This document shows positions 56,567 through 60,380 of a DNA stretch of 64,000 nt, piece by piece (the first letter of the stretch is position 1; each line of letters starts with the position of its first letter). The notes beneath the pieces were generated by a model that was not told the DNA's origin, searched no databases, and was given only the letters and a program-made list of their open reading frames with translations. Position numbers and translations under genes: made by a program. Source of the stretch: Planctomycetota bacterium (GTDB lineage Bacteria > Planctomycetota > UBA1135 > UBA2386). The stretch spans positions 5,984,001 to 6,048,000 of the forward strand of contig OZ245838.1 of the NCBI GenBank assembly GCA_965228735.1, given 5' to 3'.

Positions 56567-57169
56567 ATGACCGACGATCGATCCCGTTCTCCTCGTTCGG
56601 CCACGCTCGGACTGACCGTGCTTCGCGGTCTGGCCGTGCTCTTCGCCGTCTCCGTCATGGGCTGCTACGTCTGGGACGCCCAGCGCCGGGCCGACGAGCG
56701 CGCGGCCGAGCAGGCCCGCCAGAGCGAGTCGGCGGTCCCGGCCGGAGCGGCTGCCGACGGAACCGTGGCCAACGGCACCGTGGCCAACGGCACTGGGCTC
56801 CAGGGCAACGCGGTGTCCGGCAACGGGACCGCGGAGCTCGAACTCCCGCTCGGCTCGCCGCACACCCCGCCGGAGTTCCTGTCGAGCTCCAAGTTCGCCG
56901 TGATCGTCGACCAGAACGATCAGCCGTTGCCGTCGAGCAAGGGCATGGTGCTTCCGACCGACGTGTTCCTGATGGGTTCGAAGTCGGGCGTTTCGCCGCC
57001 CGCAGTGCTGCCGTCGTCCAAGGTGCTCGTGATCGACGAGTCGCAGTTCCTGTTCTCGTCGAAGTCGGCGGCGCCGCTGCCGGTGCCGTCGCCGCCGGCC
57101 GGCGTCGAGCCCCCTGCACCCGAGAGAAAGCAGGACGAGTCCGGCACCGAGCGCAAGCCCGAGCGATGA
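56567..57169 (+). CDS. Hypothetical membrane-anchored protein with five [S/G]SK repeats
   Basis: N-terminal hydrophobic helix; repeats LSSSK, LPSSK, LMGSK, LPSSK, LFSSK; ATGA overlap with desaturase. Confidence 0.7.
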   Translation: MTDDRSRSPRSATLGLTVLRGLAVLFAVSVMGCYVWDAQRRADERAAEQARQSESAVPAGAAADGTVANGTVANGTGLQGNAVSGNGTAELELPLGSPHTPPEFLSSSKFAVIVDQNDQPLPSSKGMVLPTDVFLMGSKSGVSPPAVLPSSKVLVIDESQFLFSSKSAAPLPVPSPPAGVEPPAPERKQDESGTERKPER

Positions 57170-58086
57170 TCACGACCGAACTGCTGCTGCACACGGCGAA
57201 GACGTTCGGGATCCTGTTCGTCGTGTTCCTGCCGCTCGAACGGCTGGCGCGCGGCCACGAGCAGCCCGTCTTCCGTCGCGGGTACGGCACCGATCTGCTG
57301 TTCTTCCTCGGGCAGTACCTGCTCTGGACCGCACCGGTGCTGCTCGCGCTGGCGTGGATCTTCAACAATTCCCAGCACCTGCCGCTCGAGCCCGTCCGCG
57401 CCACCGTCGCGGCCTGGCCATGGCCGGTGCAGTTCGTCGCGGTGATGTTCCTCAGCGACCTCGCGATCTACTGGGGGCATCGGCTGTCGCACAAGTACGA
57501 GTTCCTGTGGCGCTTCCACCGCGTGCACCACACGGCCGAACGGCTCGACTGGCTCGCGGCGCATCGCGAGCATCCGTTCGACAACCTCTACACGCGGACG
57601 ATCGAGAACGTGCCGTTGATCCTGCTCGGCTTCCCGCTGCACACGATCGCGGGCTTTGCGATGTTTCGCGGGCTCTGGGCGATCTACATCCACAGCAACT
57701 GCGCGCTGACGCCCGGGCCGCTGCGGTACCTGATCGGCGCGCCGCGACTGCACCACTGGCACCACGCGATCGAGGCGCGCGGGCAGGTCAACTTCGCCAA
57801 CCTGAGCCCGCTCATGGATCTGATGTTCGGCACGTATCACGACCCGGGGCACATGCCAGCCCGGGTCGGCATCACCGAGCCCGCGCCGAAGGGCTACGTG
57901 ACGCAGCTCATCGACCCGCTGCTTCCCGCCCGCGTGCGTCGGCGGCTCGCGGCGAGGGACGGCGGCGGGGCCGTTCCCGAGCCGGTTGCGCCGGTCGCGC
58001 CGGTCGCGCCGGTCGAGCCGATCGCGGCGCCCGAGCCCGCGCTGAGCGGATCAGGCGTCCGCGTCGGCCTGGAGCTCGTCGAGTAG
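57166..58086 (+). CDS. Sterol desaturase / fatty acid hydroxylase family di-iron membrane enzyme
   Basis: His boxes HRLSH, HRVHH, HSN, HHWHH; D.MFGT; start MITTELL. Confidence 0.92.
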   Translation: MITTELLLHTAKTFGILFVVFLPLERLARGHEQPVFRRGYGTDLLFFLGQYLLWTAPVLLALAWIFNNSQHLPLEPVRATVAAWPWPVQFVAVMFLSDLAIYWGHRLSHKYEFLWRFHRVHHTAERLDWLAAHREHPFDNLYTRTIENVPLILLGFPLHTIAGFAMFRGLWAIYIHSNCALTPGPLRYLIGAPRLHHWHHAIEARGQVNFANLSPLMDLMFGTYHDPGHMPARVGITEPAPKGYVTQLIDPLLPARVRRRLAARDGGGAVPEPVAPVAPVAPVEPIAAPEPALSGSGVRVGLELVE

Positions 58087-58779
58087 CGCCGCCGCGGCGA
58101 CCTTCTCCGCGGCGCGCTTCGTGCGCCCGAGCCCGTCCGCGTGCCGTCCGTCCTCGATGCGGGCGCGCGCGCGAAACTGCTGCTCGTGCTGCAGTCCCGT
58201 CGTCTCGACGAGCTCGTAGCGTGGCTGCCCGAGGCCGACGTGCTGGCAGTAGTGCAGCAGCGCCGTCTTGGCGTCCTTGCTGGGTTCTTTCTGGCGCTTC
58301 GGCGGTTCGTCCGCGGGCAGGCAATGGCGGCGCACGAACGCGCGAGCCGGCCGGATGCCGCCGTCGACGAGGATCGCACCGAGCACCGCTTCGACGAGAT
58401 CCGCGCGGATGCGCGCGCTGCGGGTCTCCTCCTCGCGCAGTCCCTTGCCGGACAGCAGATGCTGCGCGAGGCCGAGCTCGTCCGCGATGGTCGCGAGCGG
58501 CGTGCGGCTCACGATGTTGGACCGCGTCTCCGTGAGCTGACCCTCGGCGACCTCGGGAATGGCAGCGAAGACGACCTCCGCGACGGCGAAGTTGAGGAAC
58601 GCGTCGCCGAGGAACTCGAGGCGCTCGTAGCTCTTCTTGCCCTCGTTGCCGAGTGAGCTGTGCGTGAGTGCGCGGTCGAGCAGCGTGAGATCTTCGAACG
58701 CGTAGCCGAGCCGCTTGGAAAGCGCGAGCAGCTCGTCGCGGCGGCTGTCGTTCTCGAGTTGGTCGTCGGTCGCGGTCAT
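58051..58779 (-). CDS. rnc: Ribonuclease III
   Basis: ALTHSS, YERLEFLGDA, ADLVEAVLGA, C-terminal dsRBD. Confidence 0.96.
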   Translation of the reverse strand: MTATDDQLENDSRRDELLALSKRLGYAFEDLTLLDRALTHSSLGNEGKKSYERLEFLGDAFLNFAVAEVVFAAIPEVAEGQLTETRSNIVSRTPLATIADELGLAQHLLSGKGLREEETRSARIRADLVEAVLGAILVDGGIRPARAFVRRHCLPADEPPKRQKEPSKDAKTALLHYCQHVGLGQPRYELVETTGLQHEQQFRARARIEDGRHADGLGRTKRAAEKVAAAALLDELQADADA

Positions 58780-58832: not shown

Positions 58833-60380
58833 ATGGCGTTGCCACGCGCGACTACCGGCCCTGGCTCGTCATGGGGCGTGACGCTCGGTTTCGGCGTGGT
58901 CGCCGCCGTGCTCTACGCCGTGACGTGGCAGGACGCGCTGCACGGACTCGACTGGCGCTTCATGGTGCTGTGGTACGAGGACGGCTACGTGCATCCGCAG
59001 CACCCGGGGTATCTGCTCGCGGCTCACGTCCTCGGCTGGCTGCTCGTACCGTTCGGTCTCTCGACGTTCGACCTGCTCGCGGCGCTGTCGGTTCTCGGCG
59101 GCGCCACGGCCGTGGCCGGGCTGCATCGCATCGCCTCGGTGGCGTCGGCCGACGTCGGGATTGCCGATGCGTCCGAGACCGGCGTCGCGGCTCGTTGGTT
59201 GCCGTGCTGGTTCGCCGGGCTCGGGATGCTGACCCCGGCGGTGTGGCATCACTCGACGGTGGTGGAGCTGCACGCGCCGTTCCTGGCCGTCGTCGTCTGG
59301 GCAGCGTTGCCGCTCGTTCGCTGGGCGCGGAGTCCGGCATACGGCCAGGTCGTCCTGCTCGGCGTTCTCACTGCGATCGCGGCGCTCATGCACGCGACCG
59401 GGCAGCTGCTCGTGCCCGTCGCCCTGGTAGCGTTGGTGTTCTCGCGGGTTCGCGGCGGTGCTGCGGCGCCGAGCTGGCCGCGAGTCGGGGGCGCGTTCTG
59501 CGCGTTCTTGGTAGCGCACGGCGTGACGTTCGCGACCCTGTTCGCGCTGGTCCGTGGCCTGGGCCCGTTGCCGCCCGCGGCGTTGGCGGTGCCTGGTGCG
59601 CCCGGCCTGGAGTTCGCGGACAACCCGGCGGGTTACCTGCTGAACGCTCTCGGCGGTTCGGACGTCTTTGCGCAGTTCTGGCCGACCATGCGGCGCGAGT
59701 GGCTCGAGCCGTTCGCGCCCTGGTCGGTGCTCGTGTTGATCGCCCTGGCGCTCCGTGCGACGCGCCGCGCGGCTGCGAGCTTCGCGATCTTGTTGCTCGG
59801 CTACCTCCTCGTCGCGGTCGTGCTGTTGCGCGCACAGGTCGACGAACGCGGGGCGTATCTGTTGCCGCTGCTCGGCCCCGCGGTTTGGCTCGCACTGCGG
59901 TTCGCGACGACGATACCGCTGCGGTGCGCGTTGCTGCTCTTCACCCTGCTCGCCGGGGTTGCGTGGCGCGGAGAACCCGGTCGGCTGCCGCCGGATCACG
60001 CGTTCGGCCGCGCAGCCCTGACGCTCGACGAGGTGCGGCCGACGGCGTTCTTCGTCGCCGGCTATCCGGAGATGGACGGCGCGTTGCGCGCGGACCCGCG
60101 TCTCGATGTCGATGTCGCGCTGCGGGCGTGGGGCGAGTTGCGAGCGTTGGGCGGCGACGCCGCGTTCGAGCCGAACGAAGCGCAGATTGCGGCGTGGCTG
60201 CAGCTGCTGGCCACTTCGGCAGGGGAGCGGGGGCGGCGTTTTCTGATCACCGATCGCGCGGTGGAGTGGCTCGGCGAACGCGTGCCGACGTTCGCGAGCG
60301 GGTTCGAGGCCTTCGTCGTCGCCGCCGATGCGAAGCGCGTTTCGGCCGCGGCCGGGGTGGGGGGCTACCTCATCGAGTAG
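58833..60380 (+). CDS. Polytopic membrane protein, GT-C/DUF2723-like
   Basis: About 11-13 hydrophobic helices; HPQHPGY early loop. Confidence 0.5.
   Translation: MALPRATTGPGSSWGVTLGFGVVAAVLYAVTWQDALHGLDWRFMVLWYEDGYVHPQHPGYLLAAHVLGWLLVPFGLSTFDLLAALSVLGGATAVAGLHRIASVASADVGIADASETGVAARWLPCWFAGLGMLTPAVWHHSTVVELHAPFLAVVVWAALPLVRWARSPAYGQVVLLGVLTAIAALMHATGQLLVPVALVALVFSRVRGGAAAPSWPRVGGAFCAFLVAHGVTFATLFALVRGLGPLPPAALAVPGAPGLEFADNPAGYLLNALGGSDVFAQFWPTMRREWLEPFAPWSVLVLIALALRATRRAAASFAILLLGYLLVAVVLLRAQVDERGAYLLPLLGPAVWLALRFATTIPLRCALLLFTLLAGVAWRGEPGRLPPDHAFGRAALTLDEVRPTAFFVAGYPEMDGALRADPRLDVDVALRAWGELRALGGDAAFEPNEAQIAAWLQLLATSAGERGRRFLITDRAVEWLGERVPTFASGFEAFVVAADAKRVSAAAGVGGYLIE

Follow-up and report, generated by a model that had tools for sequence, protein, structure and literature searches.

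Two adjoining genes in a genome of the Planctomycetota raise the question of what a membrane di-iron oxygenase might do with a small, anchored protein built around repeated Ser-Ser-Lys (SSK) motifs. The genes lie in the 64,000-nt stretch of contig OZ245838.1 analysed here (the window, to which the coordinates of both genes and their neighbours refer). A first-pass annotation had suggested that the repeats may be the cores of a multi-core RiPP precursor, or some other substrate or docking motif for the neighbouring enzyme.

The gene pair and its repeated core

The upstream gene (56567-57169, + strand) encodes P0001, an SSK-repeat protein of 200 aa, as judged from its ORF translation, its homologues, and an AlphaFold2 model. 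It consists of a short basic N-region, one membrane helix (residues ~17-38, at 56615-56680 (+), placed by AlphaFold2 and the homologue alignment), and a disordered Pro/Ala/Ser-rich tail with five short cores. The cores, all on the + strand, lie at 56876-56902 (core 1, Lys109), 56927-56950 (core 2, Lys125), 56969-56992 (core 3, Lys139), 57008-57031 (core 4, Lys152), and 57050-57073 (core 5, Lys166); cores 1 to 4 are called from the translation and the core pattern, cores 3 and 4 from homologues as well, and core 5 from homologues, being invariant across the five closest proteins. The translation agrees with the initial description of a protein of ~200 aa with one transmembrane helix and the five cores as quoted there, and its supposed lack of structure also held up: the AlphaFold2 model (77-row alignment) contains one helix (13-55), is otherwise without structure (pTM 0.32), and shows no globular domain. 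The anchor helix is free of gaps in an alignment of 76 homologues and has one conserved face (conservation period 95 degrees; Val35 in 86%). Family searches with P0001 and 77 aligned relatives returned no fitting Pfam or NCBIfam family, and 78 repeat proteins gave no consistent family match (at most 3/78 in NCBIfam and 2/78 in Pfam); in the ESM Atlas, P0001 had no usable match and a Bacteroidota relative matched just unnamed clusters, below 0.9. The first spacer of P0001 (56761-56830, +) carries four Asn-Gly-Thr/Asn-Ala repeats that are absent from homologues, two of them a 15-nt tandem duplication.

The stop codon of P0001 (TGA) overlaps the start codon of P0002 (ATG) in an ATGA at 57166-57169 (+), just as had been read from the ORF coordinates, and is followed by a 306-aa PF04116 protein. 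The same 4-nt overlap between repeat gene and enzyme gene is present in 24 of 75 related loci, with the gap at 30 nt or less in 65 of the 75; the gene overlap suggests that P0001 and P0002 are translationally coupled. A promoter scan found no sigma-70-type site, a result that is uninformative at this GC content. Upstream of the pair in the window are a divergent 3-hydroxyisobutyrate-dehydrogenase-like gene and another gene that we take to resemble mfd; downstream, the 3' end of P0002 overlaps a convergent RNase III gene (58051-58779, - strand) by 36 nt (58051-58086). This neighbourhood is retained in close relatives only. A 515-aa multi-pass membrane protein (58833-60380, +) gives a weak PMT_2 glycosyltransferase-like match (E 0.006, below cut-off) and is not conserved next to the pair.

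Across 195 cores from 75 repeat proteins (median length 149 aa), the consensus reads hydrophobic-hydrophobic-x-[S/G/T]-[S/T]-K-[S mostly]-x-x-hydrophobic, or hydrophobic-hydrophobic-x-[S/G]-[S/T]-K-S in its short form. By the pattern there are one to five cores per protein (1-5 or more as a summary range), spaced 8-63 residues apart in a low-complexity tail whose spacers are not conserved. The six-frame ORFs of the 7.19-Mb genome (12.6 million residues) contain 123 matches to the pattern, and the P0001 ORF is the sole one with two or more of them (five); as the pattern was drawn from P0001, the independent proof is its conservation in homologues. DNA repeats between the P0001 cores are weak (70% over 27 nt, 87% over 15 nt) and the Ser codons differ among them, so that the peptide is the conserved thing and not the DNA, as originally proposed. 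Over the homologues, too, core Ser is encoded by both TCN and AGY codons (83/55 at -2, 150/30 at -1). The core Lys is almost never replaced: Lys and Ser/Thr at -1 are strict (187 and 195 of 195 by pattern), a fixed-pattern scan counted 165 Lys versions of the core vs 2 with Arg (Arg being half as common as Lys in the tails), and Lys occupied 150 of 150 best windows when the Lys column was dropped from a profile that had been trained on Lys-containing cores. Cys accounts for 0.3% of residues in the 75 proteins and is absent from the core profile. No flanking cleavage motif is conserved around the cores, and neither a cleavage site nor a lipobox is conserved after the anchor (a lipobox-like pattern occurs in 4/76). 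One single-core repeat protein from the Myxococcota-centred sample described below (L158, 1498-1857, -) has a Cys just after its anchor and is possibly a lipoprotein variant. SxxSSKS motifs also occur in diatom silica proteins (10.1101/2021.09.18.460806), which we treat as no more than a resemblance.

The downstream gene (57166-58086, +) encodes P0002, a 306-aa membrane di-iron oxygenase whose last ~50 residues form a variable tail. Its placement in the di-iron desaturase/hydroxylase family is borne out by intact His boxes and by a PF04116 (FA_hydroxylase) score of 97.9 bits, against a gathering cut-off of 31; the best NCBIfam match is the OlsE model NF052566, at 113 bits, far below the equivalog cut-off of 475. 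His105, 109, 118, 121, and 122 (His boxes 1 and 2, 57478-57531, +) are invariant in 77/77 enzymes, as are His136, 176, 196, 199, and 200. The alignment further marks a clade signature, Arg134-Glu135-His136-Pro137-x-Asp139, beside a conserved His (57565-57582, +), the clade-diagnostic Arg168 of the last membrane helix with the residues up to His176 (57667-57693, +), and the C-terminal His box (His196-His200) with the clade-diagnostic Asn212 (57751-57801, +). Glu135, Arg168, and Asn212 are present in 91/91 SSK-paired enzymes, and also in two enzymes with variant partners (L018 and L019, discussed below), and are rare in outgroups: in a small set of 16 outgroup representatives at 50% identity, Glu135 is not among the six commonest letters and Arg168 is not listed at all, and Arg168 occurred in 2/35 of a first outgroup set. 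Invariant polar residues (Gln50, Thr143, Asn148, Arg168) are found along the membrane helices, and most clade-specific residues fall in the putative cytoplasmic cap and the membrane helices, with few in outer loops. A structural model of P0002 built from 13 rows (pTM 0.73) gave no match with Foldseek; Scs7p is among its top structural rows (Z 3.2, rmsd 5.8-6.4 over 173-179 residues), where unrelated rows tie with it, and a PDB sequence search returned nothing under E 0.25. The variable tail contains a Pro-Val-Ala run encoded by five copies at 9-nt spacing (57978-58037, +), and its length differs in a close variant.

A conserved two-gene module

Among the best 80 of 526 relatives of the enzyme in GTDB genomes, the repeat gene lies directly upstream in 79 (two of these repeat genes being cut by contig ends), and two tandem repeat genes precede a single enzyme in 5/80. 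The named loci come from seven phyla (Planctomycetota, Bacteroidota, Verrucomicrobiota, Myxococcota, Spirochaetota, Pseudomonadota, and Ignavibacteriota), with the nearest named homologues of P0002 in Planctomycetota. Cultured carriers include Niabella ginsengisoli (L065), Aeoliella straminimaris (L089), and Saltatorellus ferox (L044). On the side of the repeat protein, a profile of five close sequences finds 88 representatives at 50% identity, and 85 of the 87 that were scored have cores.

Pairing follows the relatedness of the enzyme closely. Searching 300 genomes of the phylum, we found 21 non-self enzyme matches that reach E 1e-40; all 12 at E <=2.4e-77 have an anchor-plus-core gene upstream, and the nine weaker ones have none. 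Within the organism's own family, the clade enzyme occurs in 12/91 genomes, with the repeat gene in 12/12, and the repeat gene is beside 0/11 weaker enzyme homologues. A Bacteroidota-centred sample (251 genomes) contains three strong enzyme matches with the repeat gene and 27 weaker ones, as fetched, without it (nine further matches were left out of this count), and a Verrucomicrobiota-centred sample (201 genomes) has the repeat gene at 2/2 strong and 0/1 weaker matches. The reciprocal search of the same 300 phylum genomes returned 11 non-self repeat-gene matches at E 1.4e-4 or better, all of which adjoin the enzyme, and six weaker matches that are anchor-only; it missed one known case (G079). 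In a Myxococcota-centred sample (251 genomes), four of the 10 repeat-gene matches have anchor and cores, and all four adjoin the enzyme. No core-bearing gene was found away from the enzyme in these reciprocal searches, which score few candidates per genome, so that short single-core genes may escape them.

These counts include non-independent kin, and the profiles were built from paired loci. With that scope, the co-occurrence check that the first-pass annotation had called for came out in favour of the pairing: the repeat gene is tied almost one-to-one to one desaturase clade, and weaker homologues are without it. The enzyme tree agrees (FastTree, 128 enzymes, SH-like support, no bootstrap): one branch with support 99 comprises 95 rows, namely all 91 paired enzymes and four others, and 33 unpaired enzymes fall outside it. 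The repeat gene and the clade enzyme are a conserved two-gene module. A survey of neighbours at the 80 loci, with flanks of up to 6 kb and many contigs short, showed no conserved third gene, protease, transporter, or transferase near the pair, and no neighbour family in more than 6/80 loci except the pair itself and its shadow frames. Neither 7 viral loci nor 187 plasmid records contained the clade enzyme (best match in the plasmids, 39% identity). The locus L003 and the weak profile matches L118-L123 and L160-L165 were rejected as anchor-only or spurious. At the end of another contig (L174, 1124-2593, -), a fragment of a clade-enzyme gene abuts an RHS/Hint-like ORF on the opposite strand, possibly on a chimeric contig.

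Fusions, variant partners, and membrane topology

A search for long-form enzymes singled out seven proteins from 2573 candidates. Two of them, P0090 (635 aa) and P0091 (654 aa), combine anchor, cores, and a complete enzyme in a single chain, with five and three cores above the profile threshold, respectively; P0101 is a second copy of P0090 that differs by one residue. P0090/P0101 and P0091 are 44% identical and colinear, and because they are both divergent and colinear, a shared read-through error is unlikely. These natural fusions, which are known from protein sequences alone (they were not found at the DNA level in the 17 and 62 genomes searched), strengthen the apparent functional link between repeat protein and enzyme. 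When the repeat alignment was used to look for long forms, 7994 candidates yielded none; since the enzyme query recovered the fusions, this blank is a sensitivity miss. Four 303-aa members of the P0090 cluster are stand-alone enzymes rather than fusions. Three further clade enzymes (P0093, P0094, and P0095, one cluster each) have long C-terminal extensions (an unknown domain, a weak vWA match, and HEAT repeats) that could be assembly read-through.

Four clade enzymes have no upstream repeat gene (L017, L018, L019, and L097), and three of these adjoin a pilin-like gene with a Lys just after the membrane helix, one of them with a true core. That one is L097, the sole exception among the best 80 loci, where the gene directly downstream (1965-2285, +) begins like an SSK protein, with the anchor and a single core, and continues into a pilin-like body; the contig ends inside the gene. 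Its body presumably resembles Verrucomicrobia pilins and gave no family match. At L018 (1005-1487, +) and L019 (769-1272, +), pilin-like genes lie upstream of the clade enzymes, with Gly-Pro-Lys after the helix. The L018 protein matches pilins of its own genome at E 2e-9; both it and its L019 counterpart are without a prepilin cleavage signal, and 0/12 ordinary pilins of their own genome have a Lys at that place. The two enzymes form a long-branch pair (that of L019 is frameshifted); a metagenome scan with the L018 enzyme showed no close relative among the matches listed, and 81 genomes yielded no new member of its subclade. These pilin-like partner cases are few, from two lineages. The remaining exception, L017 (1474-2040, +), lacks a nearby repeat gene; its clade enzyme is truncated at the 5' end, has other residues in place of Arg168 and Gly222, and looks like a decaying remnant.

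For any direct chemistry, it matters on which side of the membrane the cores and the active site lie. Lys/Arg are abundant in loop 26-42 of the enzyme and in its His-box loops (4.2 and 4.6, mean of 77 enzymes) but not in its N-terminus or two short loops; given this bias, the first helix likely runs inwards from the outer side. Related AlkB has its catalytic site in the cytoplasm (PMC10110569). Each fusion chain has its cores after the anchor and ahead of the enzyme's first helix, with a membrane helix on either side, which places them outside. Charges around the anchor agree weakly with this orientation, the net charge of the N side being higher in 45/75 repeat proteins, equal in 15, and lower in 15; Lys/Arg counts alone fail to separate the two sides, and the bias is clear in both fusions. 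In the final state, the cores are thus probably outside and the di-iron site inside, on opposite faces of the membrane, an argument that would fail if the enzyme's first helix did not cross. With cores and His boxes on opposite sides, any modification of the cores by the enzyme must be assumed to precede export. Two things speak against such a step: membrane anchors are usually inserted co-translationally, and a fusion chain is synthesised with its cores ahead of its enzyme portion.

Candidate roles of the repeat protein

The reading that we favour, at slightly less than even chances, is that the enzyme oxidises the invariant core Lys of the anchored protein before export. The conserved face of the anchor helix would dock on the enzyme in the manner of a leader; each core Lys would be oxidised while the tail is still cytoplasmic, its amine perhaps held by Glu135 and Asp139, beside His136; and the modified tail would then be exported to stand, presumably periplasmic, on the outside of the inner membrane. 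Variable copy number, duplicated repeat genes, pilin-like carriers, and a strict Lys together make the core behave like a tag. A first guess at the chemistry comes from OlsE (NF052566), of the same superfamily as P0002, which hydroxylates a basic amino-acid side chain, that of the ornithine head group, at C4 (PMC12971839): by analogy, the change would be side-chain hydroxylation (+16 Da), with desaturation (-2 Da) and oxidative deamination (-1 Da) as alternatives. Against Lys oxidation, the substrate of OlsE is still a lipid and P0002 attains 113 of 475 bits on the OlsE model, and a strict core Lys also fits anion binding. No report of a partner gene for OlsE was found in the literature available to us.

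Systems with a comparable layout are known. In oxazolin (HvfA with HvfBC; PMC11252979) and the bufferins (BufA with BufBC; PMC11626156), as in our pair, an exported precursor with an N-terminal hydrophobic segment is encoded together with an iron-dependent oxidative enzyme, and no dedicated exporter is needed: bufferin precursors are modified by the iron enzyme and exported by Sec (PMC11626156), and oxazolin has a signal peptide and, like P0001, repeated short motifs, which are modified (PMC11252979). The modification has been shown for those systems and is predicted for ours. P0002 is a membrane His-box di-iron enzyme of PF04116, whereas theirs is a soluble MNIO; our pair has no DUF2063/RRE partner, its anchor is seemingly retained, and its Lys-centred cores are without the Cys that bufferin and oxazolin chemistry uses, which also counts against Lys oxidation. 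Judged by its PF04116 enzyme, the absence of Cys, and the absence of a partner protein, the pair is not a member of the bufferin/oxazolin class. Like SSK proteins, TIGR04222 proteins are membrane proteins with predicted periplasmic low-complexity tails that have been proposed as substrates of cytoplasmic iron enzymes, a link that is itself a prediction in that work (PMC12452194); unlike SSK proteins, they have Cys-rich tails, several membrane helices, and an MNIO enzyme, and none of the 78 SSK proteins matched TIGR04222 in NCBIfam. P0002 has the intact His boxes of FADS-like enzymes (Scs7p, SCD1, AlkB, and sterol desaturases) and passes PF04116, but the described ones act on lipids or alkanes, and the P0002 clade is set apart by invariant residues of its own and by its obligate protein partner. 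Lipoproteins and DAG-RiPPs (PMC13056109) have a lipobox Cys after the signal segment, of which a likeness is seen in the 4/76 given above, and P0001 and its relatives have neither the class III signal of type IV pilins (Gly-Phe-x-x-x-Glu) nor a pilin body; such a body appears only in the variant partners L018 and L019, without that signal.

The strongest rival, in our estimate rather unlikely, has the repeat protein remain unmodified and serve a lipid-oxidising enzyme as an accessory subunit. The P0001 helix would then be an additional transmembrane segment packed against the enzyme. The periplasmic cores, each a Ser/Gly-Ser-Lys-Ser nest between hydrophobic flanks, would bind either the head group of a lipid or some partner in the envelope and in this way supply, position, or regulate the enzyme; the core may resemble the end of a phosphate-binding P-loop. 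This would accommodate the predicted opposite-side topology without an extra step, and the conserved helix face, the fusions, and the overlaps in 24/75 loci would suit a stoichiometric complex. Published accounts have the superfamily act on fatty acyl or alkyl chains (PMC10110569), a further point against Lys oxidation, and every member described so far has a lipid or alkane substrate (PMC10110569, PMC12971839). The variable number of cores, the duplicated repeat genes (5/80), and the replacement by pilin-like proteins are easier to understand for a substrate, however, and the clade-specific residues lie mostly in the putative cytoplasmic cap and membrane helices rather than in the outer loops. 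An improbable compromise has a housekeeping enzyme encoded elsewhere attach an acyl chain or another group to Lys or Ser of the core; the di-iron enzyme would then hydroxylate or desaturate the attached chain. Such a chain could reach the active site through the membrane, bridging the topology gap and keeping the family's usual chemistry, and both the strict Lys with Ser/Thr at -1 (as an acceptor) and the polar invariant residues along the membrane helices would suit it; yet the surroundings of the pair show no conserved transferase in the 80 loci, and the cassette has a scattered distribution over seven phyla (12/91 genomes in its own family), so this route needs a widely shared unknown enzyme.

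The idea from which the locus was first approached, a classical multi-core RiPP whose modified cores are cut by a protease and released as small peptides, survives in part. Its repeated cores, its disordered precursor, and the pairing with one tailoring enzyme stand: as in RiPPs, the putative precursor gene is clustered with the putative tailoring enzyme, in 79/80 loci and in the fusions, and precursor-enzyme fusions are known in borosins, in which enzyme and putative substrate likewise come either as one chain or as two, although these are soluble methyltransferases to which no sequence link is expected. The part that concerns processing is not well borne out. With no conserved protease, transporter, or third gene at the 80 loci, a classical released RiPP is unlikely, even though bufferins also do without a co-conserved protease or exporter; no cleavage motif is conserved, cores may be as close as 8 residues or far apart, those of the fusions are held between two membrane helices, and a lipobox-like pattern is confined to the few cases noted. 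We consider release as small peptides very improbable. To chance neighbours with a functionless low-complexity motif we give practically no credence: the low-complexity tail and unconserved spacers would be expected of one, but not the pairing over seven phyla in unrelated neighbourhoods, the reciprocal absence, the fusions, or the retention of Ser through both TCN and AGY codons.

The boldest reading, which extends the favoured Lys oxidation and is put forward a shade more tentatively, is of a fatty-acid-hydroxylase-type di-iron enzyme repurposed as a protein lysine oxidase that would act before export on a portable Ser-Ser-Lys tag, a tag that may be multiplied, fused to the enzyme, or grafted onto pilin-like proteins, and that would serve surface-protein modification in Planctomycetota, Verrucomicrobiota, Bacteroidota, Myxococcota, and others. 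We found no description of the SSK pair or motif in the literature available to us, of which the supplementary tables of RiPP-mining studies could list them, and we rate the module as undescribed and as one that would work in the manner of oxazolin and the bufferins. Should the cores prove to be substrates, the membrane di-iron superfamily would extend from lipids and alkanes to a ribosomal protein, RiPP-like chemistry would gain a new class of enzyme, and lysines could be addressed site-specifically through a short, portable tag; if the repeat protein is instead an accessory subunit, it would still be a type of partner for which we found no description in this superfamily. On both views, an entire group of enzymes that annotation now calls "sterol desaturase family protein" becomes open to a specific and cheap test of two genes, which cultured strains carry.
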